Source of the DNA: a phage
DNA length: 64,000 bases
Sequence record: PX994957.1
Reading direction: 5' to 3' (one strand)
Shown: positions 45,706-64,000 of the stretch, piece by piece
Numbering within the stretch: position 1 is the first letter of the stretch
How the letters are laid out: each line of letters starts with the position of its first letter
Position numbers and translations under genes: made by a program
Notes under the pieces: generated by a model
Database searches by the model: none
What the model saw: the letters and a program-made list of their open reading frames with translations, nothing else
Told to the model about the DNA's origin: nothing

Positions 45706-45730
45706 TTTATTATCCTCAGTAGCTATGGTG

Positions 45731-45762
45731 TTATAATACCACAACTAACCGAGGAAGTAAAC
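45731..45762 (-). promoter_or_regulatory. sigma70-type early promoter
   Basis: minus strand GTTTAC-N18-TATTATAAC. Confidence 0.5.
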
Positions 45763-45768
45763 AACTTT

Positions 45769-46452: not shown

Positions 46453-46694
46453 TAAATTTTCCTTGCTAAATCGCGAATTTGACCTACAGTATAGTCTTGA
46501 ATATAAACTTTATTAATAGGCTCATCAATAAATTTTGCAATAGATTCAATGTCTTTTTGTATCTCTTCAAGACTGTATACTATCTTTGAAGCTTTTTCGC
46601 GAATAGTAATATTTTCAGGACCCGGATTTTCTTCAATGACAGCTTTAACATTTGTCATAAGAGATTTAAACTGACACCAACTTAATTCAATCAT
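46452..46694 (-). CDS. hypothetical protein, 80 aa
   Basis: ORF track. Confidence 0.5.
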   Translation of the reverse strand: MIELSWCQFKSLMTNVKAVIEENPGPENITIREKASKIVYSLEEIQKDIESIAKFIDEPINKVYIQDYTVGQIRDLARKI

Positions 46695-46947
46695 TAATAA
46701 TCGCCTTATAAAGATAGCTAATTTCGCCTAAAATATAATCATTGATTGTAACAGTTTTCACTTCACCACAAAAGAATTCTAACGCAATTAAATCTCGTTC
46801 AATTTCTTCTAATTGAAGCCTCAACTTACTAGATTCTATTTTTACAGTTTCACGATTTTTGCTATAAGCAATTTCATAAATTTCGCTTACTTTATCTTGA
46901 AGAAGATAAAACTGATCTTTAGTTATTTCCACGAATAGCTTCCTCAA
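46687..46947 (-). CDS. hypothetical protein, 86 aa
   Basis: ORF track. Confidence 0.5.
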   Translation of the reverse strand: MRKLFVEITKDQFYLLQDKVSEIYEIAYSKNRETVKIESSKLRLQLEEIERDLIALEFFCGEVKTVTINDYILGEISYLYKAIIND

Positions 46948-47179
46948 ATTTAATTAGTAATTTACAGACACTTTCATCTAGTGTAATTACCGTATCTGTA
47001 TTACTGTGATATGATTGTTTTTCAATTCGTTTAATTGCTAATATAGTATCACTTATAAGATAAAGCTTATGAAGGAGCTCAGCTCCTGTTACCATAACAT
47101 TAAGATTATCTTGCTTATTAGTATGCTTCCTTATACCATCTATTAGACGATTTAAATATTTTGAATTGATGTTAATCAT
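46919..47179 (-). CDS. hypothetical protein, 86 aa
   Basis: ORF track. Confidence 0.5.
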   Translation of the reverse strand: MININSKYLNRLIDGIRKHTNKQDNLNVMVTGAELLHKLYLISDTILAIKRIEKQSYHSNTDTVITLDESVCKLLIKFEEAIRGNN

Positions 47180-47185
47180 ATATCC

Positions 47186-48505
47186 TCACACATAAAATAC
47201 GTCATAACGACCACGGGTAACACCAACATAAAGAAGCTGCTGAGCTAGTTCAGCATCTGCATAATGAATACAAGGCGTATAAATGAAAGCACGGTCTACA
47301 GACATACCCTGAGCTTTATGGAATGTTGATGCAGGAAGCGCTTTCACTTTACTAAACTGTGATTTAGCATCCCAAAAATCACTCCACGGAGCTTTTCCGC
47401 CTTTATTCCAATTTTTATAAGTTTCTGCCGTTTTACCTAAAAACAGGTTAAACTTATATAGCTCTTCATCAGATGAAATTATTTTAATCTTTTCACGATA
47501 ATATTCATCATCGCCGTAAGTTTCTACTGTTAAATCCCAATGACGAATTAAGTATTCTCCAGGAACACCACGAGCTTTAACAAACGTTGATGTATACTCT
47601 GCTTCTATAATACGAACTAATTGTCCATTATTAAAAATAATTTCTGATACAGGCTTTCCATCAATTTTATATGTTTTAATTAATGGTTCCTGCATTACAA
47701 TAATTTCACCGACAATAAAATCTTTATCAGTTTCAAAAATCTTTTTACGAATAATGCTATTTAACTTATCAACAGATTTATTCGTAAATGCCATTACGCG
47801 ATTTTCAAACAAATCATCTAAAGATTTGACGATTGAAAAATAATTTACCATAAAATCGCGTAAAGCGGTATCACCAGTAAATCCACGTACTCCATGCCCG
47901 TCAACAACTTTATCATAAATCCACTTACCGTTACGAACATCAGTAGCTACATCAATAATAGGAGCATTACTGCGTTTAACTTCAGTAAGTTCACATTGAT
48001 AAAAATCTTTGTGTGTAAAGAATGGACTGATATAAGCAGTATTTTCTCCTGGATCAACAGGTCTAATTTGCTTATTATCACCTATTCCAATTATTGTGCA
48101 CCACGGCGGAATAGTTGAAAGCAGAATTTTAAATAGCTTTCTATCATACATTGACACTTCGTCGCAGATTAATACCCTGCATTTAGCTAAATCTGGTACT
48201 TCCTTCTGTTCAAAAAGAACGTTTTCTTCATACGTAACTGGGTTAATTTTAAGAATACTGTGAATAGTACTCGCTTCTTTCCCCGACAGTTTTGAAAGAA
48301 TCTTTTTAGCTGCATGAGTAGGAGCTGCCAAAATGATACCAGTTTCACCCGTAGATATTAAAGCTTCAATGATGAACTTAGTAAGAGTAGTCTTACCAGT
48401 ACCAGCAGGTCCATTAATAGTTACATGATGTTTCTTTTCTTTAATAGCCCTCATAACGATGTTAAAGGCATTTTTCTGGCCTTCTGTCAAATCATCAAAT
48501 GTCAT
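47186..48505 (-). CDS. dda: Dda DNA helicase (SF1B)
   Basis: 439 aa; Walker A GPAGTGKT; T4 synteny. Confidence 0.93.
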   Translation of the reverse strand: MTFDDLTEGQKNAFNIVMRAIKEKKHHVTINGPAGTGKTTLTKFIIEALISTGETGIILAAPTHAAKKILSKLSGKEASTIHSILKINPVTYEENVLFEQKEVPDLAKCRVLICDEVSMYDRKLFKILLSTIPPWCTIIGIGDNKQIRPVDPGENTAYISPFFTHKDFYQCELTEVKRSNAPIIDVATDVRNGKWIYDKVVDGHGVRGFTGDTALRDFMVNYFSIVKSLDDLFENRVMAFTNKSVDKLNSIIRKKIFETDKDFIVGEIIVMQEPLIKTYKIDGKPVSEIIFNNGQLVRIIEAEYTSTFVKARGVPGEYLIRHWDLTVETYGDDEYYREKIKIISSDEELYKFNLFLGKTAETYKNWNKGGKAPWSDFWDAKSQFSKVKALPASTFHKAQGMSVDRAFIYTPCIHYADAELAQQLLYVGVTRGRYDVFYV

Positions 48506-48813
48506 CGGAAAGTCCCTGCAATTGGAATACTAACAATACGCCCAGTATCTAGAATTCGTTGATATAATCTTTGTGTATCTACATCAGGCTTAACATGTTT
48601 AACTTCTATTTTATTAAACCAAAACTTGCGTGGAGTCTCAACTAGTCTTGGAATTCCCATACCTAAAGCTAGTTTATATTGGTCTTTGAGAGTAGTAAAA
48701 ACTCTATCAGCAATCTCTCTTTCAAAAAATACAGCAGGACGATGTTCATCAAGTGGAACTGGCGCCGTAAATCCGTCTTTGTCTCGGTAAACTATCGCAT
48801 ATACATAAACCAT
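48502..48813 (-). CDS. hypothetical protein, 103 aa (dda.1 position)
   Basis: ORF track. Confidence 0.55.
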   Translation of the reverse strand: MVYVYAIVYRDKDGFTAPVPLDEHRPAVFFEREIADRVFTTLKDQYKLALGMGIPRLVETPRKFWFNKIEVKHVKPDVDTQRLYQRILDTGRIVSIPIAGTFR

Positions 48814-48814
48814 A

Positions 48815-49561
48815 TTATCCTCGGATAAGTTTAAAAATTGAACAATTTAGTGGGTATCCTCTTTTCAGTTTAAGTTTATCAATAAAAGACAAGTTTTGAT
48901 ACCGCTCTACACCTTGAATAATTTTATCACACATATCATATTGCATTTCTGCTTCTGACAACTTTTTCACAATTTTCCAATCCGAGCCTTTAAGAAGAAC
49001 GTTCAGTTTAACAACTTCAGCGCCTTCTGCTATGCGAGAACCATCAATACGAGCTTTAAGTGCTATAATCCTTAGCTTAATGTCAGAGGTCTGTTTTGAT
49101 TTAGAAAGCTGAGAAATGTGTTCAATTCGATTTTCACGCTTTTTCTGTATAGCTTTAATTTGATTATAAGTCTTTTTGATTTTAGCCCATTTCTTTTCAT
49201 CTAAATTTAGTTTATGAACTTTTTTCGCAGATGAACGACCAATTCGCAAAGCAAATAAATCCCGTTTTTCAATCAACTCTTCTAAAGTATAATCAGAACG
49301 AAATGTATTATACTTTTTCTTTACTGCAATAACGTTCCCTTTAATGTATCCAATGTTATTATCAAAACGTTCTAATGATAATTTCTCTCCTTCAATACGA
49401 TTATCAAAAGGTTCTCCTGAATAGGCACAAACTTTTTGATCTAAAATGTTCTTAATGTAATTGAAGTCTAAGTTAAAATCTTTAGAACGTCTTTTTGCAG
49501 ATGCCTGAGTATGCTCTAAACGACGTTTAATTTTACGAATTTGGTTATTAGACAGTTTCAT
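48815..49561 (-). CDS. srd: basic 248-aa protein at the T4 srd position (Srd-like); assignment is positional
   Basis: size and synteny between dda.1 and modA; early promoter upstream. Confidence 0.45.
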   Translation of the reverse strand: MKLSNNQIRKIKRRLEHTQASAKRRSKDFNLDFNYIKNILDQKVCAYSGEPFDNRIEGEKLSLERFDNNIGYIKGNVIAVKKKYNTFRSDYTLEELIEKRDLFALRIGRSSAKKVHKLNLDEKKWAKIKKTYNQIKAIQKKRENRIEHISQLSKSKQTSDIKLRIIALKARIDGSRIAEGAEVVKLNVLLKGSDWKIVKKLSEAEMQYDMCDKIIQGVERYQNLSFIDKLKLKRGYPLNCSIFKLIRG

Positions 49562-49590
49562 ATTTTTCTCACGGACGGTTAACTTACTTA

Positions 49591-49621
49591 TACTATATCA
49601 TTTTTACTTCAGCTTGTAAAC
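49591..49621 (-). promoter_or_regulatory. sigma70-type early promoter
   Basis: minus strand GTTTAC-N18-TATAGT. Confidence 0.5.
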
Positions 49622-49677
49622 AACTTTATGTAAAATGCTTTAAAACTTTCGTGGTATAATGAATCTAAGTCCTTCCA

Positions 49678-50280
49678 TTATAGATTAAATCCTTCAAAAT
49701 CAAGAGTATAGATAGTGTATGTTGAATACTTTTTATACTCATATCTATCTGCAATTCTAAATACACTTCCAGCTGGTATCATTACTTCTTGTTCATCTGA
49801 AACTAATTCCATATTACGATAACGATGGCTATCCGGAAACTTAAAGTTTGGATTGTATTCTTTACAGCGTAGAGCTTTTATAGCATACTCCTGGAAATTG
49901 AATACCATAGGAGCTTTGAATTCAAAAATAACCTGTGTGTTATACTCTAAACCGGAAGCAAAATGTAGAGCTATATTTTTATCATATGAAGCTGATACTA
50001 CTTTATCAAATGTAATAATATCAATTCCTTGATTTAACACTTGCTTAGTCTCGACTGGAACACCTCTCCAAAGAGGTTTATCGTTTGGTTCCAAACGAGA
50101 TTTGATTATTTCATTTAACCAAGTATGGTCATCTGGTTTGTTGGTAATACAATGAATTAAAAGTTCAATTTCAGATAAATTAAACCCTTCAGAAAGTAAT
50201 TCTTCACGAATAGAAGCACGCACCGATGCATCCATTGATTTTATTTTAAAATCTTTTAGTTGCATTACTGAGTATTTCAT
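49678..50280 (-). CDS. modA: ADP-ribosyltransferase ModA
   Basis: 200 aa; T4 synteny; paralogue of the adjacent ModB. Confidence 0.8.
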   Translation of the reverse strand: MKYSVMQLKDFKIKSMDASVRASIREELLSEGFNLSEIELLIHCITNKPDDHTWLNEIIKSRLEPNDKPLWRGVPVETKQVLNQGIDIITFDKVVSASYDKNIALHFASGLEYNTQVIFEFKAPMVFNFQEYAIKALRCKEYNPNFKFPDSHRYRNMELVSDEQEVMIPAGSVFRIADRYEYKKYSTYTIYTLDFEGFNL

Positions 50281-50900
50281 TCAACTACCTCAATATCATA
50301 AACTTTAAATGTTCCAAATGAATCGTGTAATTTTTCTTTTGAAATAGAAGTTATTTTATACTTTCCAATTGGAATCATCCATTCTTGTTCACGCACAATC
50401 ATCATTAAGTTATCAGTTCTTTCTGAATCTAACCCGTCAGTATCTTCATACGTGTACTTAAACTCAGTATTAGGAGAAGAAAGTATAATATCGCTGATAT
50501 GGTCAGAATAATTAAAAGCTTTATCAGTTTTTAAGCGAAAAATTATTTCAGTGAAATATTCAGCATAAGAAAAAGAACACGCTGTATGCAAACTAGTAGT
50601 AAATGAATCTACCCTGTTCGTTGAAAACACTTCTCCAACTTGTAAATCTTTAATGAGTTCTTTTGTCGATTTTGATATACCACGATATAATTGATAAGGC
50701 GATTTAATTAAATGCTTTTTAATGATTTTATTCAACTGTCTGTGAAGAGCTTCATTCTTTTTGGCTTCCATACATTGCCAAAGAACAGACTGCTCAAAGT
50801 CAGTAAATTTTTCACAGACCTTTTTATACATATCATATTGAAAATCAACGCTTTCAGCTTTTATAGATAACTGTTCAACATCTGCAAGATTAATAATCAT
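50277..50900 (-). CDS. modB: ADP-ribosyltransferase ModB
   Basis: 207 aa; T4 synteny. Confidence 0.8.
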   Translation of the reverse strand: MIINLADVEQLSIKAESVDFQYDMYKKVCEKFTDFEQSVLWQCMEAKKNEALHRQLNKIIKKHLIKSPYQLYRGISKSTKELIKDLQVGEVFSTNRVDSFTTSLHTACSFSYAEYFTEIIFRLKTDKAFNYSDHISDIILSSPNTEFKYTYEDTDGLDSERTDNLMMIVREQEWMIPIGKYKITSISKEKLHDSFGTFKVYDIEVVE

Positions 50901-50927
50901 GATAGCCTCCGTATACTTCAGAAGCTA

Positions 50928-50956
50928 TCATATCATCGTTAGAAAGGAAAGTAAAC
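50928..50956 (-). promoter_or_regulatory. sigma70-type early promoter upstream of modB
   Basis: minus strand GTTTAC-N18-TATGAT. Confidence 0.5.
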
Positions 50957-50967
50957 AACTTTTTGAA

Positions 50968-51150
50968 TTATTTTGCCCAGGGAGCCCAAGGCGGAGGGTC
51001 AAGATGGTATGAAGCTAGTTCTTCTAGAAGAGCATCTGGAGCTTCAATTCCATAATTCTGTAATACTATACGGTATTCTTTCTTATAATCACTAGAATCA
51101 TTCTGGTTATTCGTAGAATGATTATCTTCTAACATCTCAAATAAATCCAT
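50968..51150 (-). CDS. hypothetical protein, 60 aa
   Basis: ORF track. Confidence 0.45.
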   Translation of the reverse strand: MDLFEMLEDNHSTNNQNDSSDYKKEYRIVLQNYGIEAPDALLEELASYHLDPPPWAPWAK

Positions 51151-51158
51151 ATTAATTC

Positions 51159-51629
51159 CTAGCGATAAAAACCAAATTGACGATTAGCTTCAACAATCTT
51201 TCTTTCTTCTTCAGACATTCTCCAGCGTAGTCCAACGTCAAAATGAGCCCAGACCATCTTAACAAATGCATTTATATCTTTAATATCTTCAATAATGAAT
51301 GTTTTACTTTTCGAAGGTTGACTCGCTAATTTAACTTTATCATCTTCAAACAGGTCAAAAAGACCATATTCATGAGCTCTTTTATAGCCTTTAATAGTTA
51401 AAGCTTCAGAAGAAGAAAACGGTGAATCAGTATTCTGCAAAATATCTTCAGTATGCTTTATAATTAGAATAACATTTTCTGGATATTTTCTTTCTTTTAT
51501 ATCTTTAATTAAAAAATCCGGATTTTCTGCTAAAGGAATAATTAACGAGCATTTTTTACCAAGAGTATTTACTGATTTACCTTCTTTAGACATAAATTCT
51601 ATTGAATAATGTTTTGCTACTTCAATCAT
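51159..51629 (-). CDS. hypothetical protein, 156 aa (mrh region)
   Basis: ORF track. Confidence 0.55.
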
Positions 51630-51782
51630 GTGATTTCCTTTTGCCTACTAATGGACCGTCGGGAATTTTGTTTTCCTGGATATATTTCTCATTTTCTTCC
51701 ATCATTTTACTACCGATTTTAAGAAGCAAATCCATTGCTTCATTTGCTTTAGCTTTAGCCTCTTCTAACGTCATATCTTTGT

Positions 51783-51986
51783 TCATGATTTATCACCATA
51801 GATGTCTCTCATCAATTTAAGCGCTGAGCGTTCTAATTTCTTTTCTTTCTCAGCACTAATCATTGATTTCATCCATTCTTCCGATTCGTTCTGCATTTCT
51901 TTATTTGCTTGTTCAACCCAGCCATCATCAATATACATTGAGTTTGGTCGATTAAACCATTCAAATATTTTCTTTAGGACTTTCAT
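51783..51986 (-). CDS. hypothetical protein, 67 aa
   Basis: ORF track. Confidence 0.5.
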
Positions 51987-52467
51987 TCATTTTACCTAAA
52001 ACAATAGTAGGAGCATCGTCAAATTTATGAATTTTTAGCAAATTTGGAGTTAATTTATTCCATAAAGAAGTAATAAAATATGATAGCGCAATTTCTTCCG
52101 CAATTATGAATTTATTTCCCTTATCTCCCTTATCTATTTTCCAGTCATGTACTGAATCATATGAATAGAAGGACAGCGGTTTATTGTTATAAAATGCTTC
52201 ACCAACATCAATATAGTTAGATTTAGTAAATGCTTGAATTGACGTAAATGGAGAATTTTGTACAGTTTCAATAATTCCGATCTTTTTAAGTTTTATTTCA
52301 ACATCTTCTGGAACTGGCATTGAAATAAAATCTTCTACTAGATACATGCTATTGTCATATCTTTTGTCAATCATTACTGCTACAGTAATTGGAACATCCT
52401 TGACAAACGCCATACTAATACTATTAATAAACATTTCAAACAAAATTGCTTCCATAATTTTCCTCAA
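51961..52467 (-). CDS. hypothetical protein, 168 aa
   Basis: ORF track. Confidence 0.55.
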
Positions 52468-52796
52468 TCACAAGATGTAGATGAACAACTAGAATCACAA
52501 GAACTTCCGCATGAATCACTTGCCCATACGTGAACAGGAACATTTGTATCATATGAAGAATTAGAACTTTTAACTTCGTTAGAAGATGTAGGTACTGACC
52601 ATCGCCAAGGATTTTTATAATATTCTTGGGCTTCTTCATAAGTCATAGTAACTGCTTCTACTGTTCCATCTCCCATATAAACATACTCAACTACAGTTAA
52701 AGGAAGGTAGTCATTTGAAATAGGAACTACACCTTCCCCAGGAGTCGTAGAGAAAAAATCCGTAAAGAAACTTTTAAACCAATTAAAGATAAACAC
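52464..52796 (-). CDS. hypothetical protein, 110 aa, with Cys/Ser-rich C-terminal tail
   Basis: ORF track; tail [18 protein letters not shown]. Confidence 0.5.
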
Positions 52797-53002
52797 TACA
52801 AAAAACCTCTCTTGAATTCAACTTGCTTCTCGCCATAATCATATCGAATCTCTGCATTAAATTCGACAGAACCATCTGCGTACATCATAAATGAATGCAC
52901 AACAACTTCTGTGGACCATGGCTGCAGTTCATATTTCTTCATTACATGTCGTGAAATGATAATATCTAAATCTTCATTTGGTTTAATCCAACGATTTAAC
53001 AT
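52796..53002 (-). CDS. hypothetical protein, 68 aa
   Basis: ORF track; early promoter upstream. Confidence 0.5.
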   Translation of the reverse strand: MLNRWIKPNEDLDIIISRHVMKKYELQPWSTEVVVHSFMMYADGSVEFNAEIRYDYGEKQVEFKRGFL

Positions 53003-53028
53003 AGTGCTCTCCTCTATAAGATAATTTT

Positions 53029-53057
53029 ATTATACCATACTCATTTTGGAAAGTAAA
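53029..53057 (-). promoter_or_regulatory. sigma70-type early promoter (TGGTATAAT extended -10)
   Basis: minus strand GTTTAC-N18-TATAAT. Confidence 0.55.
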
Positions 53058-53068
53058 CCGGTAAAATG

Positions 53069-53092
53069 AAAAAGGACTCCCTAGGGAGTCCT
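53069..53092 (-). terminator. rho-independent terminator downstream of soc
   Basis: perfect palindrome AGGACUCCC-UA-GGGAGUCCU followed by U-run on minus strand. Confidence 0.75.
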
Positions 53093-53099
53093 TGAATTA

Positions 53100-53336
53100 T
53101 TAACCACCTATTTCTGTAGGCGTAAACATTGCAGCATTCTTAGTTTTCCAAGTTGCTGCATCGGAAACTACATCAGAATAAGCTGCTTTTTCTGACGGAA
53201 AGATTTGATAATGAGAATCTGCAATACGGTGTTCATTTGAATATACATCAAATGCTACAGAAACTTCCATACCTTTAACTTCTTTGCCTTCACCTGCTGG
53301 ATGAGTAAAGGTCTTGATGTTAACGAAACCACCCAT
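53100..53336 (-). CDS. soc: small outer capsid protein Soc
   Basis: 78 aa; VNIKTF ... SVAF ... HYQ.FPSEKAAYS pattern matches recalled T4 Soc. Confidence 0.85.
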   Translation of the reverse strand: MGGFVNIKTFTHPAGEGKEVKGMEVSVAFDVYSNEHRIADSHYQIFPSEKAAYSDVVSDAATWKTKNAAMFTPTEIGG

Positions 53337-53367
53337 AATAAACTCCTTTATTGTTTAATTACAGGTG

Positions 53368-53375
53368 TATTTATA
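53368..53375 (-). promoter_or_regulatory. late promoter TATAAATA upstream of soc
   Basis: exact TATAAATA on minus strand 32 nt upstream of the soc ATG. Confidence 0.65.
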
Positions 53376-53517
53376 ACTTACAATTTAGCGGCTTTCCAGA
53401 GTTGTTCAATAATCTCTTGGTCTATTTCTTTAGTTATTTCATTACGTAATAAAGCAGTAAGGGCTTTCGCCCTTTTCTTATTCAACTTTTTGAGTTGACG
53501 TTTATTTAAACAAGCCA

Positions 53518-54036
53518 TTAATAACCTCGGTCTTGACGTGCGAAATTTTCAGCATTTTTCAGGTAATAAAGTTTAAAGATTTCTTCTGCTGTAAGACCAA
53601 GACCTTGGAACATGTTCAGAACGAAATGGAGAATATCAATCATTTCAAACTTAATTTCCAGTTGGTCTTGTGGAGACAAATCAGTAATCAGAGTTTCACG
53701 GCGTTCACCATGCTGCGACTTCCAAGGCTTCCATACAGCAGATGCATCTTTTTCACCATTGCTCATACCACCAAGAGAAGTCAGAAGTTCACGGAATTCA
53801 TCATCAATATAATCTTTCTGATTACGCAACCAATCAACAACTTCACCGGCAGTAGCCAAGTCATCAGGATGACGATTATATTCAGGTTTATCTTTAGCTA
53901 AACGAATTTGCAGAGATTTCTGCATGTCAAGCATTACCTGCAGCGGGTCTTTTTCATCACCGAGAATATCCCAATATTCATTTTGAGCTTTATCAGCGCC
54001 TTCGATCAGTTGACTACATTCGTTGAAATGTGGCAT
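53518..54036 (-). CDS. 56: dCTPase/dUTPase gp56 (MazG-like pyrophosphatase)
   Basis: 172 aa; T4 synteny. Confidence 0.88.
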   Translation of the reverse strand: MPHFNECSQLIEGADKAQNEYWDILGDEKDPLQVMLDMQKSLQIRLAKDKPEYNRHPDDLATAGEVVDWLRNQKDYIDDEFRELLTSLGGMSNGEKDASAVWKPWKSQHGERRETLITDLSPQDQLEIKFEMIDILHFVLNMFQGLGLTAEEIFKLYYLKNAENFARQDRGY

Positions 54037-54109
54037 GTTATTTTTCCTTTCAATTCATGGGTTAGTAGATTAATTATACAATAAATATATAAAGCAATAA
54101 GGAGGACAT

Positions 54110-54310
54110 ATGGTACAAAAATTAATGGCACTTGTTAATGCCATAAAAGGTAATAAAAAACGTATAGCTTTTACTATTTCTGCTATGGTAGGAATTTTAC
54201 TCTGGAACTTTATTCTATCACCTGTTGCAATTGCGCATGGTATTAATATTCCAGTAGTTACTCTTGATACATTTGTAGATTTAGCATTTGCTTTAGTTGG
54301 GTTAATTTAA
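54110..54310 (+). CDS. small predicted membrane protein, 66 aa, on the opposite strand between genes 56 and 61
   Basis: ATG preceded by AAGGAGGA RBS; two hydrophobic segments; fills the gap exactly. Confidence 0.5.
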   Translation: MVQKLMALVNAIKGNKKRIAFTISAMVGILLWNFILSPVAIAHGINIPVVTLDTFVDLAFALVGLI

Positions 54311-55335
54311 ATCTTAGCATATTTAGATAGCCGCATTTTAGCCATCAACCCCTGGGCAATATTATTTTTCATATATTCCATAATTTGTTCAGGGGTTGCA
54401 CCTTCCTTTCTAATCATATCATTAACATCTTTTGATTTCCAGGGAGATTTATCCCAAAACATAACCCTTTCTCCTGCATCAACTAATTTAGTCATTCGCT
54501 TAATAGTGTCAGGATGACGAGGTTCATTATCTAAGACCCACACACGCCTATCTTTAAATGGAACAACTTCTAGGTCTAATTGACCACCCGTAATAGCTAT
54601 ACCATTTTCAATAAAAAGTGAATCTATAGGTCCTTCTAGAACATATACATCGCCATCTTTAACTCGTTCAACACCGTAAATTTTTGTTGCCTCAGGATAA
54701 GCTTTAATGGTGATATATTTTTGAGGAGCATCTTTCTTTAATGCACGTCCTTGAAAAGACTCAGCTTTTCCATTAGCATTATAAATTGGAATAACAAGAC
54801 GAGGCTCAGAAATTTCCTTTTTGTATGTTCCCGGTGCTATGCTATTAACTAATTTAGGCCATTCGGTTGTAAACCAAAGATATTTCCATTTATCCTTTGG
54901 AATACAACGAGCTTTTACATATTTTATAATTGGATGGTCTTCCGCCAGTTTATCTAATCTAACACACGACGGAAGAGATTTAATTATTTTCTTCTCAGGT
55001 TGTTTAGGAAGTTCTTTAGGTTTTTCTACTGGACGACTTTTACCTTTTTCTTTTCTTATTTCAAAGATATACTCACGATATAAATCGGGTTCAAACTCCT
55101 TTAAATATATTCCGATTGGTGCATGATAGTTACAGTTATAACAATGAATATTTCCTTCATTATTATCACCATAATACCATCCACGAGCTTTATTCTGATC
55201 GGTTTTTGAATCTCCACAAACAGGGCATCTAAACCGCAATTTAAAAGTTGAACTATTATTTACTTGTGTGAATTTAGGTAAATGAGCTAATGCACGATAC
55301 GCAAACTCATTATCAATCCAAGGTATTGATGACAT
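54307..55335 (-). CDS. 61: DNA primase gp61
   Basis: 342 aa; zinc-ribbon CPVCGDSK ... CYNC; Toprim region. Confidence 0.93.
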   Translation of the reverse strand: MSSIPWIDNEFAYRALAHLPKFTQVNNSSTFKLRFRCPVCGDSKTDQNKARGWYYGDNNEGNIHCYNCNYHAPIGIYLKEFEPDLYREYIFEIRKEKGKSRPVEKPKELPKQPEKKIIKSLPSCVRLDKLAEDHPIIKYVKARCIPKDKWKYLWFTTEWPKLVNSIAPGTYKKEISEPRLVIPIYNANGKAESFQGRALKKDAPQKYITIKAYPEATKIYGVERVKDGDVYVLEGPIDSLFIENGIAITGGQLDLEVVPFKDRRVWVLDNEPRHPDTIKRMTKLVDAGERVMFWDKSPWKSKDVNDMIRKEGATPEQIMEYMKNNIAQGLMAKMRLSKYAKI

Positions 55336-55503
55336 TTTTACTCTTCTTTTTCTTTAGATTCCTCTTTCTTCTTTTTAGGAATCTGTTCAGGACCTTTATT
55401 TACTACAGCGCCCGACGTTGTTCCAGTAGAGATATTTTCAGGATTACCACCTGAATCTCCAGCGACCATATCTTCTTTGATAAATTCTTTATATGTTTTC
55501 ATA

Positions 55504-55860
55504 TTAACCTCTATTCATAAAAGCATTAAAAATTTGGTCATCAATAGATGGAATAGCAACCTTTTCGGCATCATTTAGCAAATCATTAATTTCATCAGAT
55601 AGCATAACACATGTGCCTTTATTTCCTGTAATTGTTACTGCGCAATTACGAACGTTTTCTTTATCAAATTTTAGGTTAATATTTTCGTAGTGAAAATCCT
55701 TTAATGCCGAATATATCTTTAAAATGAAATTGTCTTTTACTACAATAAACCCAACCTCACTATTAAAACGTGGTTCATGGAAACTGTAATAAACCTTTTC
55801 ATCTATAAAATCGTATGAAATTTTTTCCATTTTTAAATATGAAAATTCAGAACTATACAT
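55504..55860 (-). CDS. hypothetical protein, 118 aa (61.1 position); shares a C-terminal tail with the next ORF
   Basis: ORF track; tail SIDDQIFNAFMNRG. Confidence 0.55.
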   Translation of the reverse strand: MYSSEFSYLKMEKISYDFIDEKVYYSFHEPRFNSEVGFIVVKDNFILKIYSALKDFHYENINLKFDKENVRNCAVTITGNKGTCVMLSDEINDLLNDAEKVAIPSIDDQIFNAFMNRG

Positions 55861-55861
55861 A

Positions 55862-56503
55862 TTAACCTTTATTCATAAAAGCATTAAAAATTTGATCATC
55901 AATAGAAACATTTACTTTAGACTGTTTTTCTGATGGTAATTCATATCCACATATTACAATTTTGTGATCAATATCAAAATACACAGAAGCAATATGATTA
56001 ATGATGTTTTCAGTAAAGTCTAAATCAACATCAATATCTTTTTGACCACAGCCCAAAGGATAAATAATGCGAGTAATTCGATTATCTTTAACAAATATTC
56101 CACCGACATACTCTGTGCTGCGTTTAAAGTTTACACGTTTCCTAAATGAAAAATATTCAGGTTCTTTATGAGCCCGACTCATAGGACACAATGAGTAGCT
56201 AGAATAAGAGATGTCAAATCCTACACCTTCAATATGAGCCAACGCGTCATGATTAAACCAATTATAATCATATGCCAAATCCATTATATTGTAATATGTG
56301 AAAGGCACCGGATTAACATCATGTGTTGTACCTTTAAAATCTGCCCAGGCAACGATTTCGTTATCTTTAACAATTACAAAAATTGTGTCAATAAGATATC
56401 CACGGTTATTTTCATCAGGCGTTATATTATAACATTGTGCATCAGGAAATTTACCGTATTTAAACGGTGGATTTTTGTGCATATAATAAATCATATTATT
56501 CAC
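55862..56503 (-). CDS. hypothetical protein, 213 aa (61.2 position)
   Basis: ORF track; tail SIDDQIFNAFMNKG. Confidence 0.55.
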   Translation of the reverse strand: MNNMIYYMHKNPPFKYGKFPDAQCYNITPDENNRGYLIDTIFVIVKDNEIVAWADFKGTTHDVNPVPFTYYNIMDLAYDYNWFNHDALAHIEGVGFDISYSSYSLCPMSRAHKEPEYFSFRKRVNFKRSTEYVGGIFVKDNRITRIIYPLGCGQKDIDVDLDFTENIINHIASVYFDIDHKIVICGYELPSEKQSKVNVSIDDQIFNAFMNKG

Positions 56504-56789
56504 CTGTGATTTCGGTTACGATATTTTTGTTATTAAAGTTTTTATCGCAATACAGAACATAATTATACTGCATTACACCACCAAACTTAAGTTGTTTTTG
56601 CACTTCAGCTTTCATTTTAGGACGATCGCGCTCAACAATATTCATAATATCCGCTTCAATTTGAGTTTCAACTTCAGTCTGATCTGCAGTCATAGACCAT
56701 TCACACAAGTCTTTATCATATCCTGCCATAGCAGGCTGAGCAGCACAAGAAGCCAAAGTAAAAATTGTAGCAAAAATAAATTTTTTCAT
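56496..56789 (-). CDS. sp: secreted/periplasmic 97-aa protein, probably spackle (61.3)
   Basis: 97 aa with cleavable signal peptide; size and position as T4 sp. Confidence 0.55.
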   Translation of the reverse strand: MKKFIFATIFTLASCAAQPAMAGYDKDLCEWSMTADQTEVETQIEADIMNIVERDRPKMKAEVQKQLKFGGVMQYNYVLYCDKNFNNKNIVTEITGE

Positions 56790-56849
56790 GATAATCTCCT
56801 CAGTAGTTTATGTTTATATAATATCTCAATTTCCAACAAAAGTAAACAG

Positions 56850-57107
56850 CTATTTTAAAACTTCTGCATAATCACATGTTACAAACTGTTTCTCTAGCTT
56901 AACGATCTTACGAAAGTATCTTTTGCATTGACGAATCTGCCGTTTCGTAGGACGTACAGCAAACTTAATAAATTCCACTCGACCAAATGGAGGGCTTTCT
57001 TCTGCCGGAATATCTAACACCAATTCCCACGTATCCGCAATAAGTGCTTTGAATTGAGTATTTTTCCTGACGTTATACGGAGTAGGTTTAAATAAAACAA
57101 TATGCAT
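56850..57107 (-). CDS. hypothetical basic protein, 85 aa (61.4 position)
   Basis: ORF track. Confidence 0.5.
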   Translation of the reverse strand: MHIVLFKPTPYNVRKNTQFKALIADTWELVLDIPAEESPPFGRVEFIKFAVRPTKRQIRQCKRYFRKIVKLEKQFVTCDYAEVLK

Positions 57108-57108
57108 A

Positions 57109-57291
57109 TTATCCTCGGCAATCTACTTCACATACTTTCTTGTCATCAATGAAAGCTTTAACTAATGCTTTATTAACTTCAGCATATTGAGTAGTAGCCC
57201 ATTGAACGTCATCTTTCATCATTGTGGTTTCTTTAGTAAACATGCTTTCATTCTTAAACCACCCCATAAAAACTACCTTTACCAATTCCAT
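57109..57291 (-). CDS. dmd: Dmd antitoxin (discrimination of mRNA degradation, 61.5)
   Basis: 60 aa; size and position immediately before gene 41 as T4 dmd; sequence fits recollection. Confidence 0.6.
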   Translation of the reverse strand: MELVKVVFMGWFKNESMFTKETTMMKDDVQWATTQYAEVNKALVKAFIDDKKVCEVDCRG

Positions 57292-57321
57292 AACAATCTC
57301 CTCATTTAACCAACAAGACTA

Positions 57322-57350
57322 CTATACCATAGTCTTGTCAGTTTGTAAAC
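57322..57350 (-). promoter_or_regulatory. sigma70-type early promoter with CAAGACTA/TAGTCTTG palindrome over the -10
   Basis: minus strand GTTTAC-N18-TATAGT. Confidence 0.55.
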
Positions 57351-58777
57351 TAAAATTTTAATTCATTTGCCAAAGCATCTAACTGAGCTCGAGTGGATTC
57401 ATTTCTTTGATAGCGATTCTGTTCAGCCTGAATCTGTTGTGAACCTGCTACTTCACTCACTTCAGTTGGAGTAGAATCTTGTTCAATTTCTACCCATTTT
57501 TGATTTCCTTTTTGAACACCCATCAAAAACTTATTCCACTTATTCTTATCACCATATCGTGATTTGATTTGCTTAATAAGTTGTTGTTCAGCAGCTGCTA
57601 GCTCCTCGGTTTCAATGACCGCAAGCATAAAATCAGCTGTTGCTGGAAGACCAGCAGATTCTGCAATATCGCTCATGTTAACATCGGAAGAGTCCCAAGC
57701 TTGTTTACCGACCTGTGCTGCAGTCCAAAGAACAGTTTCGGTTTCAACAGCCAGAGCACGCAATTCCTCTGCGATAGCTTTAACAGTTGTGTAACTATTT
57801 TCTGAATAAACTCTAATGCGGCAAGATTTACAAATACCTAGATAGTCGACAATAATGATTGTTGGAACAAAATTCTTCTTGAGCTTCAATTCATTCAAGA
57901 GAGACCTGAATGTGTTAGCATCTGCCCCACCAGTGGGATACTGTTTAACGATTAAACGACCAAGAGTAGATTTCTCACGCCATTTTTCCATTTTTCCTTT
58001 ATACTCAGCGTAAGAAATATGCCCATCATCAATGTCATCAAGAGAAACATCAAGCATATTAGCATCAATACGCTTAGCACAGACTTCTTCTGCCATTTCC
58101 ATGGAAATGTAAAGAACATTATGTCCGAGCTGCAAATAATCTGCTGCCAATGAACAAAGTCCTAATGATTTACCAACGTTAACGCCAGCCATTAAAACGT
58201 TCAGTGTCCCAGTCTCAGCTCCGCCTTTAGTAATTTTGTTTAGAATTCTGAGTTTAAATGGAACCTTACGAGCTTTATTCATATAAGATAGCCAACGTGC
58301 TTCGTAGTCATCCATCCAATCATGACCAACGTAACTATCAAATGAAATTGATAATGCTTGGCGCATGATGTCAGGAATAGCACCAACGTCCGGCATTTTC
58401 TTATTTCGTTTTTCCGGAGGAAGCTCAGCATTAGTTTGAATTTCGATTATTTTAGACGTAGCATTAAACATCGCCCTTTGCTGAACATATTTTTCTGTTT
58501 CTTTTACTAACCAGCTGTGGTCTTCCGGAGAATCAGCTAGTTTTGAAATAAGTGTTTTTACACCAGAATATTCTGTTTCAGTAAATGAACTATTTTCTAA
58601 TGCAACATTTAACGCATTAATAGATGGAACGCTATGGTACTCGTTAACATGAGATTTAATTAATTTGAACGTATTTTTAGCTGGACCACTTTCAAAATAT
58701 TCTGAATCCATATATGGCCAAACTTTTGAAAAATAAGCTTGATCAAATATGAGATGAGAAAGAATAATTTCTACCAC
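57350..58777 (-). CDS. 41: replicative DNA helicase gp41 (DnaB-like)
   Basis: 475 aa; Walker A GVNVGKS; T4 synteny. Confidence 0.93.
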   Translation of the reverse strand: MVEIILSHLIFDQAYFSKVWPYMDSEYFESGPAKNTFKLIKSHVNEYHSVPSINALNVALENSSFTETEYSGVKTLISKLADSPEDHSWLVKETEKYVQQRAMFNATSKIIEIQTNAELPPEKRNKKMPDVGAIPDIMRQALSISFDSYVGHDWMDDYEARWLSYMNKARKVPFKLRILNKITKGGAETGTLNVLMAGVNVGKSLGLCSLAADYLQLGHNVLYISMEMAEEVCAKRIDANMLDVSLDDIDDGHISYAEYKGKMEKWREKSTLGRLIVKQYPTGGADANTFRSLLNELKLKKNFVPTIIIVDYLGICKSCRIRVYSENSYTTVKAIAEELRALAVETETVLWTAAQVGKQAWDSSDVNMSDIAESAGLPATADFMLAVIETEELAAAEQQLIKQIKSRYGDKNKWNKFLMGVQKGNQKWVEIEQDSTPTEVSEVAGSQQIQAEQNRYQRNESTRAQLDALANELKF

Positions 58778-58786
58778 ACTTACTCC

Positions 58787-59149
58787 TTAAAAGAATTTAA
58801 ACTTTTTCTTTGACCTTTTATTAAATGCATCTTGTAGTTGCATTGTAATACATTTTTCTACATGAGGAGCTAACTCAGCTTTTCTTTTTTGGTCAAGAAC
58901 AGCAAAGTCCATTACGACTTTTCCATCAACCCAATCTAATTTTGTCACATACACAATATGTGTAGAACCATCTTCTAGTTTAATGACAATCTCCTGGATA
59001 ACATTTTCCATGGCAGATTTAATTATCTTAAGAGATTCATTAAAAAGACGTTCTTTTCTTTCTTCTTCCCCCTCCGAAGAGGGGGATTCATCGATAATTT
59101 CTAGATCTAAATCTAAATCATCTTTATTCATTAAATTCTTCCATATCAC
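58787..59149 (-). CDS. 40: head vertex assembly chaperone gp40
   Basis: 120 aa; T4 synteny between 41 and uvsX. Confidence 0.7.
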   Translation of the reverse strand: MIWKNLMNKDDLDLDLEIIDESPSSEGEEERKERLFNESLKIIKSAMENVIQEIVIKLEDGSTHIVYVTKLDWVDGKVVMDFAVLDQKRKAELAPHVEKCITMQLQDAFNKRSKKKFKFF

Positions 59150-60305
59150 TTAACTGCTCGAGGTCAGTTTCTAAATCAGCTGCTGATTTACTTTTACTTT
59201 CTGGAGATTTAAATTTTTCAACCTTTGAGTTAATCAATTCATCAACTTCAGCTTCAACAATTTCATTACTATCAATAGCACCTAACTGATAAGCACGTTT
59301 AATAGCATCTCGGAATGGTTGATGCTTAAATAAAGGACCCCAGAATGTAGTGCAGTTGGTATCTTTTGCACGCCAAGATTTTTCTTCGCGAATCATCTCG
59401 CCGGTTTCTTCGTCAAGAAATTCACGAGCATACCAACCATTCTTAGGTTTTACTACAAATCCTAATTCTAGAGCCATATCTAACAATCCAGAATAAGGAT
59501 CGATACCACCGTCAAATTTAACATCAATAAAGAATTTACTTTTTTCTTTAACGGTACGAGATTTTTCTACATTTAGAACAAATTGATACCCCTGAAGATC
59601 AGAACCATCTTTAATCTGACGCTTACCGATAATGAATACAGTATCAGCCGAATACATTACGCCTGTACCACCTGTCATCACGGTTTTACTAAACATTTCA
59701 ATTGTTTCAATTGTATGGTTAACCGCAACACATGGAATATTTTTAATGCTAAAATAAGGAGTAACAATACGAAATAATGACTTCAGTGATTTAGCACGAG
59801 TCATATCTGCCACAGATTTTTCATTCAAGGCGTCTTCCGTTTCTTTCTTAGAAGCCATATTACCGATTGAGTCGATGAATACAATAACCTTTTCACCACG
59901 CTCAATAGCTTCAAGTTGATTCACCATATCAATTTTCAGCTGTTCAACTGACTGAATTGGCGTATGAATTACTCGTTCCGGGTCAACTCCCATGGATCGC
60001 AAATAAGCTGGAGTAATACCAAATTCGCTATCATAGAATAGACAAACCGCGTCAGGATATTTGTTCAAATATGCCGCAACCATAGTCAAAGACATATTTG
60101 ATTTAAAGTGTTTAGAAGGCCCTGCGAAAATAGTTAAACCAGACTGCATACCGCCATCAATCGCACCAGAAATAGCAATATTCAGCATTGGAATTTTTGT
60201 ACGGATTACATCCTTTTCATTAAAGAATTTAGATGTAGTCAGTTCAGCAGTCATTTTAGAAGTGGAAGCTTTAATCAAACGGGATTTTAAATCTGCAATA
60301 GACAT
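59124..60305 (-). CDS. uvsX: RecA-like recombinase UvsX
   Basis: 393 aa; Walker A GPSKHFKS; matches recalled T4 UvsX. Confidence 0.93.
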   Translation of the reverse strand: MSIADLKSRLIKASTSKMTAELTTSKFFNEKDVIRTKIPMLNIAISGAIDGGMQSGLTIFAGPSKHFKSNMSLTMVAAYLNKYPDAVCLFYDSEFGITPAYLRSMGVDPERVIHTPIQSVEQLKIDMVNQLEAIERGEKVIVFIDSIGNMASKKETEDALNEKSVADMTRAKSLKSLFRIVTPYFSIKNIPCVAVNHTIETIEMFSKTVMTGGTGVMYSADTVFIIGKRQIKDGSDLQGYQFVLNVEKSRTVKEKSKFFIDVKFDGGIDPYSGLLDMALELGFVVKPKNGWYAREFLDEETGEMIREEKSWRAKDTNCTTFWGPLFKHQPFRDAIKRAYQLGAIDSNEIVEAEVDELINSKVEKFKSPESKSKSAADLETDLEQLSDMEEFNE

Positions 60306-60384
60306 TCATTTTTTTTCCATAGGCATCATTATATTTTCCTCACTGGTTAAAGATAGAGTAATTATAACACAATAAATTTAGGCA

Positions 60385-61233
60385 TTAATCAACTGCTATT
60401 GGATGAATAGCATTAAACTTATGAAATGCTTCTGATTTTTCTTTACGTGAAACGCACATGCGAAGAACCTTTAATGGCTCGTCTTCTTCACCCAACGATT
60501 TTCGTTTTTCAATATTCGACGTTTTCCAACGAGCTTGCTCTGGAAACTCTCTATTGATTTGCTCAAGCGCTCTATTATGTTTAGAATTACTACGAATTGA
60601 ACTGCACCCGCCAGGAGCTTGTGCTTTTCCAGATACAACCAGATATTTGAACAAGGCCAAATGCGGATAACCTTGATTAATTAAATTGAGAAATGCATAC
60701 ATATCTTCGCACAAATCAATTTTTCCATACCCAATTTGTTCTGTCGTAAGTTTTCCAAGGTCATACCATGTATTCGTGAATCCATATGAATTTTCACGAT
60801 AATTACCCCAAGATGAAGTAATTTTAAAAATAGGTAGACGAGCATGACCATGATAATACCCGCAATCCATGGCATCTTCGACGTATTGAATCAATTCATA
60901 GAACTGTTCATGAGTCAATTGATTAACTTTATCCACACAACGACGGTCATCTCTTTTTCGCATTGAACTCATACGAATAGTAGTATCATCGTCAATCATC
61001 CAGATTCGTTGACCTGCATACATATCAGTAATTGCTTTACGAGTACCGGCAATTCCGTTTACATCATCAGGAATAGTTATAATTTTAGCTCTAGACCCAT
61101 AGGCATCATAATAAGCTTTTTCTTCATGTTCACGCACTACAATATGGGGTTCATAATCAGTCGGAAACATATCAAGGGCAGAAACTGCCCCGACACGCTG
61201 ATAACTTGGAATTACGAATTGAATCATTTCCAC
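60385..61233 (-). CDS. putative hmC-DNA glycosyltransferase (DxD motif) in the slot occupied by beta-gt in T4
   Basis: 282 aa; WMIDDDTTI DxD-like motif; not the T4 beta-gt sequence; lies between uvsX and 42. Confidence 0.45.
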   Translation of the reverse strand: MEMIQFVIPSYQRVGAVSALDMFPTDYEPHIVVREHEEKAYYDAYGSRAKIITIPDDVNGIAGTRKAITDMYAGQRIWMIDDDTTIRMSSMRKRDDRRCVDKVNQLTHEQFYELIQYVEDAMDCGYYHGHARLPIFKITSSWGNYRENSYGFTNTWYDLGKLTTEQIGYGKIDLCEDMYAFLNLINQGYPHLALFKYLVVSGKAQAPGGCSSIRSNSKHNRALEQINREFPEQARWKTSNIEKRKSLGEEDEPLKVLRMCVSRKEKSEAFHKFNAIHPIAVD

Positions 61234-61964
61234 TCACCTTTATAGTCTTTTTTCACAATATGAGTTTCGCCAGTATTCCACCAATGATCAACCAAGTAAA
61301 AATGACGAGAATATACATGAAGACTTCCGACATTCCATATAATAGAACCTGCTTTATACTGACGAGTTGAATCGCCGGCATTCAAATCAGATACTAATTT
61401 ATCTAATACGTATTTTTGCCATGCATAATCATTACGGAATCCGAAGACTACGTCATTTGAGCGCATGCTTACTACTGCATTGACTTTCTTATCACGAATC
61501 AGGTACTGTACTGTATTAGTACACATGAAATCTGACATGCCATCTTTATTGTAGTCAAATTGCATGGATGGACGAGTATAAATCATGATACCACGTCGAG
61601 AATCAGGATTTTGACCAAGTTCAGCTAAACACATATCATACTGAGCATAGTTATCTTCTGACCAAATAGCCCAACCATAATTCGAGTTAATTTCGCCTTT
61701 AGAAGATGCTACCTGCTGCCAAATCTTTGGTGTTTCACCTGGAATATCTTTAACAAACAAGCTCTTAGATTTATACCATTCAAGTTCGCGCTGAATGTAT
61801 TCATCATTAAGAGCGCCAAAAATAAACGGTTCATCTGCTACAAATGATGCGCCAATAATTTCAATAGTTTTAACACCAGTTTTATCAACTACGAAATCTT
61901 TTTCCTTTAATGCAGTTCCCAAATAAAAACGGATTTCTTCAACTGTCATAGAGTCATTAATCAT
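61224..61964 (-). CDS. 42: dCMP hydroxymethylase gp42
   Basis: 246 aa; near-identical to recalled T4 gp42. Confidence 0.93.
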   Translation of the reverse strand: MINDSMTVEEIRFYLGTALKEKDFVVDKTGVKTIEIIGASFVADEPFIFGALNDEYIQRELEWYKSKSLFVKDIPGETPKIWQQVASSKGEINSNYGWAIWSEDNYAQYDMCLAELGQNPDSRRGIMIYTRPSMQFDYNKDGMSDFMCTNTVQYLIRDKKVNAVVSMRSNDVVFGFRNDYAWQKYVLDKLVSDLNAGDSTRQYKAGSIIWNVGSLHVYSRHFYLVDHWWNTGETHIVKKDYKGEWK

Positions 61965-61971
61965 TTAAACC

Positions 61972-62121
61972 TCAATTGATGCATTCATATTTAAATTGTA
62001 ACAGTAATAAACCCCACCCTATGATAAGAGTTGGAATCATAGCAGGAACTGTTACGCTATAGTATATACTTATTATAACCATCAAGATTAAAAGCAACAC
62101 TGTTATAATTTTGCTTTTCAT
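61972..62121 (-). CDS. small hydrophobic membrane protein, 49 aa
   Basis: own translation MKSKIITVLLLILMVIISIYY...; ATG overlaps the imm stop. Confidence 0.45.
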   Translation of the reverse strand: MKSKIITVLLLILMVIISIYYSVTVPAMIPTLIIGWGLLLLQFKYECIN

Positions 62122-62369
62122 TCCTTCTCTCTGATGATAATTACTTGATTTGGTTGTGCGGATTTTTTAGTTTCACCCGCAATTGACCAAATAAATGTAA
62201 TAAACCAACCAATAATTGACCAGTTAAACAGTAAAGATGTGAAAAAGATTCCTACTGTTGATTTTGACCCACGCATCAAGGCGATGAACCATGGAAGCAT
62301 GTATATAATAATAGCCAACACACCTGAAACTAAAACCATAAAAATTGAACCTGCTACTAAAGTTTCCAT
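62118..62369 (-). CDS. imm: superinfection immunity protein Imm
   Basis: 83 aa; two TM helices; T4 synteny. Confidence 0.85.
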   Translation of the reverse strand: METLVAGSIFMVLVSGVLAIIIYMLPWFIALMRGSKSTVGIFFTSLLFNWSIIGWFITFIWSIAGETKKSAQPNQVIIIREKE

Positions 62370-62376
62370 GCTTTCC

Positions 62377-62757
62377 TCACTTAGTCAAATTTTTTACACA
62401 TGAATTATAAGAATTCACTACATACTCCATCGGAGCATTTTTACCAGTACGCCATTGGTAATTATTAGCCCAATTAGCCCAAAGTTCGGCGCAGTAGTTT
62501 TCAATTTTTTCTTCGCGTGTAATTACATCTGAATTACGATATGCTTGAGCAGATTCATCTGGACGAATAGCTTCGTCAAAATTTGCCTGCATTTGTTCTA
62601 CTGTTTGCTTTGGAGCTTCTTTATAACACTTGACATTAGGATTATAAAACTTGCTTGAACAGTTTACAATTTTTCCTACATCAGACTGATTTACTACCGG
62701 TCCTTGAGCCACACAACCAGTAAGACCTAATGCAATAACCAAAATAGCGATTTTCAT
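62377..62757 (-). CDS. predicted lipoprotein, 126 aa
   Basis: signal peptide with LTGC lipobox. Confidence 0.55.
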   Translation of the reverse strand: MKIAILVIALGLTGCVAQGPVVNQSDVGKIVNCSSKFYNPNVKCYKEAPKQTVEQMQANFDEAIRPDESAQAYRNSDVITREEKIENYCAELWANWANNYQWRTGKNAPMEYVVNSYNSCVKNLTK

Positions 62758-62767
62758 AATAATTTCC

Positions 62768-63004
62768 TCAAATGCAAGTAGTAATTACTCCAGTAGTGCT
62801 TATGCAGGTATTACCAATTTGCACACCTAAAGATCCATTTGTATTCACATGAAGATTATCATCAATTTTAACTGATATTTTACCATTAGTGTGAATAACG
62901 GTGCTAGATTCAATCACAGGTTGAGTATCATTTTCAACACTAACAAATGGAACTGCTGCTAATGCAACTAAACAAACTGCTAAGCATCCCATAACAATTT
63001 TCAT
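62768..63004 (-). CDS. secreted/membrane protein, about 78 aa (start MKIVMG with GGAG RBS)
   Basis: ORF track frame; signal-peptide-like N-terminus; early promoter upstream. Confidence 0.5.
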   Translation of the reverse strand: MKIVMGCLAVCLVALAAVPFVSVENDTQPVIESSTVIHTNGKISVKIDDNLHVNTNGSLGVQIGNTCISTTGVITTCI

Positions 63005-63040
63005 TTTATTCTCCAAATCCGTATCAGTAGTTGATAGTTG

Positions 63041-63071
63041 TATAGTACCATGGAAGAACATTCTTGTAAAC
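63041..63071 (-). promoter_or_regulatory. sigma70-type early promoter with conserved leader box
   Basis: minus strand GTTTAC-N18-TACTAT. Confidence 0.55.
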
Positions 63072-63158
63072 AGTTTTGTGAAAATTTTTTAGGGAATTTT
63101 AAATGTCCAGAATCATCTGTTTTTCATAAGTATAGATTTATATTACTTGTATGAAAAA

Positions 63159-63174
63159 GGGACCCGGAGGTCCC
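63159..63174 (-). terminator. rho-independent terminator downstream of gene 43
   Basis: GGGACC-UCCG-GGUCCC followed by U5 on minus strand. Confidence 0.7.
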
Positions 63175-63187
63175 TAGATTTATTCTA

Positions 63188-64000
63188 TCAGCCAAACAGG
63201 AAGTCTAACGAAGCTTTTTCTTCATAGTCCATACCAGCCGATTCACACATGCCCGCAAGCGGTTTAACAAACGATTTTTGGAACAAAGTTGAGTAGTCAA
63301 TCCAAAACAGTACGTCAGAACGAATTTCTTTTGGAAGTTCTGTACCCGACGGCCAAGCAATGCATTTGTCACCAAATGGATTTCCTTCACGCAATGGAAG
63401 AACCATTACTTTATTTCCATCCAAAATTGGAGCTACACCTAAACCGCTAACAGCTCGACGATAAGTTAGCACACCACGAATATGGAACGGACATTTAAAT
63501 CCTGGCCAACCTTTATCATCATATTTCGCTATATCGTTCGCAGTTTTTACTTCAGCAATAACTTTATAATCAAGTTGACGATATTCTTTCTCAAAGTTCT
63601 TGTAGTATTCTTGGACAGACTCTTCACCTTCTTGAAGAATACGACGAATACTTTCTTCGAGAGCTTCTTGGACCGCTTTAGGCGTTGAACTCTGCTGAGT
63701 TTCCATACCCATGATTTTTAGATGTGGTTCAGCAAAACGCTTATCTTCCATATCATAAACGTTCAGAGCATAACGCTTTTTCGCTTTCCAAAATCCACCA
63801 ACACCCTTTGAACCAAGCGGAGGGCAAGAAATAGCTTCACGGTCCATATGCATCAGATGCTCGCGGTTATTCATATAATCACATAACTCACGATATGCAA
63901 CATCAATCATAGGTTCCATCTTTTTCTTACCAAACTGATTCATGAATTCAACTAAATCATTTTGTTCTTTAAAGCGGTCAAGACCTACTTTTTCAATTAC
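63188..64000 (-). CDS. 43: DNA polymerase gp43, C-terminal part (gene continues beyond the right edge)
   Basis: frame open to 64000; C-terminal clamp-binding tail ...KASLDFLFG. Confidence 0.9.
   Translation of the reverse strand, partial: VIEKVGLDRFKEQNDLVEFMNQFGKKKMEPMIDVAYRELCDYMNNREHLMHMDREAISCPPLGSKGVGGFWKAKKRYALNVYDMEDKRFAEPHLKIMGMETQQSSTPKAVQEALEESIRRILQEGEESVQEYYKNFEKEYRQLDYKVIAEVKTANDIAKYDDKGWPGFKCPFHIRGVLTYRRAVSGLGVAPILDGNKVMVLPLREGNPFGDKCIAWPSGTELPKEIRSDVLFWIDYSTLFQKSFVKPLAGMCESAGMDYEEKASLDFLFG

Follow-up and report, generated by a model that had tools for sequence, protein, structure and literature searches.

A gene between uvsX and gene 42 of a phage genome very probably encodes the T2/T6-type glucosyltransferase of hydroxymethylcytosine DNA

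Which sugar is added to phage DNA by the product of the gene between uvsX and gene 42, and to what acceptor? The question is raised by a 64,000-nucleotide stretch of phage DNA (sequence record PX994957.1), here called the window, in which an original prediction made from the letters alone had noted an ORF of 282 aa in this slot. The product was held not to be the T4 beta-glucosyltransferase; it could be a beta-glucosyl-HMC alpha-glucosyltransferase as in T2 and T6, or another sugar transferase acting on hydroxymethylcytosine (hmC) DNA. In T-even DNA the T2/T6 enzyme decides between mono-glucosyl and gentiobiosyl hydroxymethylcytosine. Its gene, named ba-gt, ggt or g-gt, was reportedly cloned from T2 and T6 by Winkler and Ruger in 1993, and the TAGT family is said to have been defined by Iyer et al. 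in 2013. The mono- or gentiobiosyl state alters the sensitivity of the DNA to the Brig1 glycosylase, the BapA deglucosylase and nucleases of the GmrSD/BrxU type (PMC13160076, PMC13216743, PMC13390438).

No record in the phage collection is close to the window throughout. The best matches are Sa45lw over positions 44000-64000 (98.3% over 20 kb) and AugustSocin over positions 1-24000 (97.4%), and this change of the best relative by segment would fit a mosaic Tequatrovirus of sf23/AR1 type. The locus is arranged as follows.

59124..60305, minus strand: uvsX recombinase, the downstream neighbour (Pfam T4_UVSX_C 4.7e-39, RecA 2.4e-11)
60385..61227, minus strand: ba-gt / ggt / TAGT CDS, 280 aa plus stop, very probably beta-glucosyl-HMC-alpha-glucosyltransferase
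61224..61964, minus strand: gene 42, dCMP hydroxymethylase, which makes the hmC precursor; upstream and overlapping (Pfam Thymidylat_synt 1e-15; thymidylate-synthase fold)
61234..61239, minus strand: Shine-Dalgarno sequence AGGTGA, read from the sequence, within the 3' end of gene 42 and 6 nt upstream of the ATG at 61227

The minus-strand frame at 60385..61233 is open and unbroken, and encodes 282 aa if counted from a GTG at 61233. The predicted ORF and its slot are therefore as described; the predicted length is not, since translation almost certainly begins with the ATG at 61227, which gives a protein of 280 aa. The ATG is preferred because the Shine-Dalgarno sequence lies 6 nt from it but directly adjoins the GTG with no spacing, because the start codon shares an ATGA overlap with the stop codon of gene 42 (61224..61226), and because an 843-nt CDS is called in most of the annotated relatives examined. 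In two T6 records the CDS is 786 nt and 840 nt, as a result of lesions in those records. The ATGA overlap suggests co-transcription with the dCMP hydroxymethylase gene, and translation of the two may possibly be coupled.

The spacer between uvsX and the transferase gene is only 79 nt (60306-60384), and past gene 42, whose counterparts in T6, T2 and Sa45lw are annotated as dCMP hydroxymethylase, lie imm, imm.1 and then the C-terminal part of gene 43. The transferase gene has 35-38% GC, the same as its neighbours, and recent import is not indicated by base composition. A promoter and terminator scan of 60200-62500 gave 9 matches against 10.1 expected and 1 against 0.9; these are chance levels, and we therefore claim no transcription signal for this interval.

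Several smaller observations were made in the same region. Codons 13-18 of the transferase gene contain a 7-bp GC-rich hairpin, GGGGCAG TTT CTGCCCT (61175-61191, minus strand), a short way before M20 and its in-frame ATG. The hairpin is kept in the window, T6 and Sa45lw, and was picked up by the terminator scan, though at chance frequency. Two small ORFs, 62768-63061 and 61972-62121, both on the minus strand, flank imm and imm.1; both are predicted to be membrane-protein-like, and neither is matched by Pfam. Between imm.1 and gene 43 the content varies: T2 and Sa45lw have different small ORFs there, and both T6 records are without an annotated gene. The dCMP hydroxymethylase gene is labelled 'thymidylate synthase' in many RefSeq records. 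Several GenBank records have clearly mistaken automatic names in this region; the ORF at the alpha-gt position of T2 AP018813, for instance, is called 'N-acetylmuramoyl-L-alanine amidase'.

What, then, does the gene encode? This is no chance ORF, since it has protein homologues down to E=6.8e-188 and is carried by 475 phage records, at nucleotide identities of 90-99%. These records are mostly of Escherichia, Shigella and Yersinia Tequatrovirus phages, and in most of them the annotation is beta-glucosyl-HMC-alpha-glucosyltransferase. By tblastn, the protein of Citrobacter phage PhiZZ6 is 100% identical and a remoter group from T4-like phages of Klebsiella, Enterobacter and Citrobacter is about 65% identical. 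Direct comparison with T2 gives 277 of 280 identical residues, the changes being R11H, H106R and P251S. There are likewise three differences from T6 MH550421 (Q10*, Y40N and D55G); the 261-aa ORF annotated in that record is identical at 259 of 261 positions, and the amber codon at Q10, upstream of it, is the third difference. QOTSP differs at two positions (D24N and H106R), Sa45lw also at two, and BGP at eight. A match to PHROG 842 (6e-89) places the protein in an orthologue group, with full-length orthology to the T2/T6 enzyme, and the slot between uvsX and gene 42 of a Tequatrovirus genome is that of the T2/T6 enzyme.

A search of profile families, which the original prediction had proposed as a check, identified a glycosyltransferase: Pfam PF20691 (TET-associated glycosyltransferase, TAGT) scored 39.1 bits against a gathering threshold of 27.5, and its domain is covered whole, residues 3-207 aligning with profile positions 2-205 of 205. 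No NCBIfam model matches the transferase, and a search of PDB sequences gave only chance matches (E above 1), so that no solved structure of the family is detectable by sequence. The claim that this is not the T4 beta-glucosyltransferase is borne out by BLASTP, in which the best alignment between the two has an E value of 0.28 over 10 residues. We consider it very probable that the gene product is the T2/T6-type beta-glucosyl-HMC-alpha-glucosyltransferase, a TAGT-family (PF20691) enzyme of GT-A fold that uses UDP-glucose to form gentiobiosyl-hmC. This rests on its identity with enzymes already characterised, on synteny and fold, and on the intact state of the family-invariant residues; the chemistry and phenotype are taken from the literature, and the residue roles proposed below are putative.

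The T2/T6 enzyme places a second glucose, in beta-1,6 linkage, on alpha-glucosyl-hmC to give gentiobiosyl-hmC, which accounts for about 5% of the hmC in T2 and about 72% in T6 (PMC13160076, PMC13216743). The suggested enzyme name thus identified the right protein, but it is not to be read as an alpha-transferase acting on beta-glucosyl-hmC, for the reaction is the transfer of beta-1,6-glucose onto alpha-glucosyl-hmC (PMC13160076, PMC13216743, PMC13390438). The further proposal that the gene sets the modification state and the restriction sensitivity of the DNA is backed by published T6 deletion mutants (PMC13160076). Deletion leaves alpha-glucosyl-hmC only, at about 75%, and wild-type T6 has about 25% bare hmC; the deletion DNA gains sensitivity to the Brig1 glycosylase and is a substrate of the BapA deglucosylase (PMC13160076). 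In Tequatrovirus phages of the Durham collection, including QOTSP and BGP, HPLC/MS found 5-hmdC along with its alpha-gentiobiosyl and alpha-glucosyl forms; in these close relatives a beta-glucosyl form was not detectable (PMC13390438). The authors ascribe the second glucose to a TAGT gene syntenic with T4 beta-gt (PMC13390438). About one third of the 5-hmdC is unmodified in the QOTSP group, and QOTSP itself is a measured high-gentiobiosyl phage (PMC13390438).

For TAGT homologues as a whole, the specificity for the acceptor has yet to be settled (PMC13216743). Might the enzyme instead be a primary transferase that acts on bare 5-hmC and stands in for T4 beta-gt? Its slot is exactly that of T4 beta-gt, and some phages have solitary TAGT homologues with neither alpha-gt nor beta-gt (PMC13216743). 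Such an enzyme would not leave alpha-glucosyl-hmC or bare hmC, however, and is contradicted by T6, whose protein is 99% identical, where the deletion keeps about 75% alpha-glucosyl-hmC and the wild type about 25% bare hmC (PMC13160076), as well as by the QOTSP group with its bare third and its lack of beta-glucosyl-hmC (PMC13390438). We regard direct action on hmC as extremely improbable. Or, does it transfer another sugar, such as galactose or the arabinose of RB69-like phages, or make another linkage? Donor specificity varies among TAGT-family and other GT-A enzymes, and arabinosylating T4-like phages are known (PMC13216743, PMC13390438). This too is very unlikely, since the protein is two to three residues from the enzymes of gentiobiose-containing phages with no change at invariant positions, and arabinosylation, in the phages that have it, runs through a 5-hydroxy-dCMP pathway and other gene clusters (PMC13390438), whereas gene 42 of the window is T6-like.

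The fold and the conserved residues agree with a T2/T6-type glucosyltransferase. A profile built from the window protein was used to search 1.84 billion representative proteins and found 2143 family members at E<=0.001; conservation was counted in an alignment of 140 representatives that are 17-64% identical. Invariance is limited to four columns (R11, D80, D175 and G207), and P7, R63, D79 (138/140), D81 (132/140), G186, G206 and R212 are nearly so. The window protein keeps all of these residues. Three of the motifs concerned map as follows.

60703..60708, minus strand: E174-D175 codons, xED-like motif at the start of helix 174-184 (D175 in 140/140, E174 in 110/140)
60985..60993, minus strand: D79-D80-D81 codons, DxD motif (D79 138/140, D80 140/140, D81 132/140)
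61195..61197, minus strand: R11 codon, within the N-terminal motif IPSYQR, where strand beta-1 ends (R11 in 140/140)

The DxD-like motif WMIDDDTTI, to which the original prediction had drawn attention, corresponds to residues 76-84, and its DDD is kept across the family. An AF2 model made with the 140-member alignment (pLDDT 94.7, pTM 0.92) is a single Rossmann-like alpha/beta/alpha nucleotide-sugar domain, that is, a GT-A glycosyltransferase fold. The DDD follows directly on strand 74-78, beta-4, in the canonical GT-A position for a DxD motif. For the T6 protein, an earlier AF3 model was likewise given a GT-A fold, and a place as sister group to GT2 (PMC13216743). E174-D175, at the opening of its helix, would correspond to the xED motif of inverting GT2 enzymes. 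The DDD presumably binds the metal and the UDP diphosphate, R11 would have a part in nucleotide-sugar binding, and D175, by analogy with GT2 enzymes, is the likely candidate for the catalytic base of an inverting GT-A enzyme.

Copies of this gene in laboratory stocks are not always intact. R11H is present in all seven T2 records and in SV76 (8/8), at a position that is otherwise Arg in every one of the 140 representatives, and an exact 33-nt probe for the T2 allele had no other match among 50,697 phage records. The affected T2 genes, in which R11H corresponds to window codon 61195-61197, include the following.

AP018813, L004:3283-4125: T2 gene, R11H
MH751506, L008:2286-3128: T2 gene, R11H

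As judged from the sequence, T2 R11H is a candidate hypomorph, and may explain why gentiobiosyl-hmC is so much scarcer in T2 than in T6. In T6 MH550421 a CAG to TAG change makes codon 10 an amber (L001:3951-3953), which is seen in no other record; the product is annotated as 261 aa from M20, without strand beta-1. The second T6 record, AP018814, which is RefSeq NC_054907 (L007:2135-2974), has lost one GAT of (GAT)3, so that DDD becomes DD and the protein 279 aa. The same GAT loss, again with DDD to DD and 279 aa, is found in HP3.2 (L010:477-1316), a directed-evolution derivative; in its parent HP3 the gene is otherwise identical and the DDD intact. A literature search for HP3.2 found no paper.

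Is the window gene likewise inactive or attenuated, so that the DNA would be mostly mono-alpha-glucosyl-hmC as in T2? The lesions in the stocks of T2 (R11H), T6 (the Q10 amber or loss of one Asp from DDD) and HP3.2 show how this could come about, but none of them is present in the window allele. Its invariant and near-invariant residues are intact, its reading frame runs the full length behind a good Shine-Dalgarno sequence, and its protein is identical to that of PhiZZ6 and nearly so to that of QOTSP, with its high gentiobiosyl content (PMC13390438). There is accordingly only the slightest chance that this copy is defective. The lesions suggest that gentiobiosylation is easily lost in culture, a hypothesis about the other phages, the window allele being intact. 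The DDD codons of the window, GAC GAT GAT, form an interrupted repeat. We put forward tentatively, and with considerable doubt, a wider scheme in which the level of second glucosylation is often tuned or lost through this one gene, R11H explaining T2 and the (GAT)3 of some lineages acting as a slippage-prone off switch, with the window allele stable and highly active and its DNA T6-like.

For an active T2/T6-type enzyme the following course can be proposed. The transferase gene would be expressed together with gene 42. UDP-glucose would be held through the DDD and a divalent metal, and glucose passed with inversion, D175 being the likely general base, to the 6-OH of the alpha-linked glucose on 5-hydroxymethylcytosine in duplex phage DNA; the product would be gentiobiosyl-hmC. 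The acceptor would be supplied by alpha-gt. Neither T6 alpha-gt nor T4 beta-gt was found in the 64-kb window by tblastn; in T6, T2 and Sa45lw alpha-gt lies about 12 kb past gene 42, which would be about 10-12 kb beyond the window's end. We assume that the phage has alpha-gt, and nothing in the sequence speaks against the T2/T6-type assignment. If alpha-gt is carried as in the relatives, the DNA of this phage should resemble that of T6 and QOTSP, with about two thirds gentiobiosyl-hmC, about one third bare hmC and little mono-glucosyl-hmC.

Every part of the idea from which this analysis started had already been published, and the gene is an ordinary intact copy of a known enzyme. For the window the result is a routine annotation together with a prediction of T6-like DNA modification; the finding itself adds no new biology.

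T4 beta-gt (GT63) occupies the same slot, and it too uses UDP-glucose and makes a beta linkage on a modified cytosine in DNA (PMC13216743). It has no sequence similarity to the window protein, however, and its fold is GT-B, unlike the GT-A fold modelled here; its acceptor is bare hmC, whereas that of the T2/T6-type enzyme is alpha-glucosyl-hmC. In T4 the GIY-YIG homing endonuclease gene segA stands between uvsX and beta-gt, and the window lacks it. Relative to T4, the slot therefore shows both replacement of the cassette and absence of the homing endonuclease. The inverting GT2-like GT-A enzymes (WrtF 9omh, AvpGT 9jma, TarP 6h1j and SpsA 1h7l) have the same Rossmann-like nucleotide-diphospho-sugar transferase fold, and they too carry a DxD behind strand beta-4 as well as an acidic motif of xED type. 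With the TAGT family of PF20691 the protein shares a whole-domain match and the four family-invariant residues, but the T-even enzyme is without the link to a TET/JBP dioxygenase that gave the family its name; T-even phages obtain hmC through gp42 at the level of the nucleotide, and what the enzyme glucosylates is a sugar already on the DNA instead of the hydroxyl of the base (PMC13216743, PMC13390438). The window protein differs from the T2 records in keeping the R11 that is replaced there by His, and from the two T6 records in having neither the Q10 amber nor the DDD-to-DD deletion. In its residues, its length, its position between uvsX and gene 42 and its ATGA overlap with gene 42, it is like the T2/T6 enzyme.
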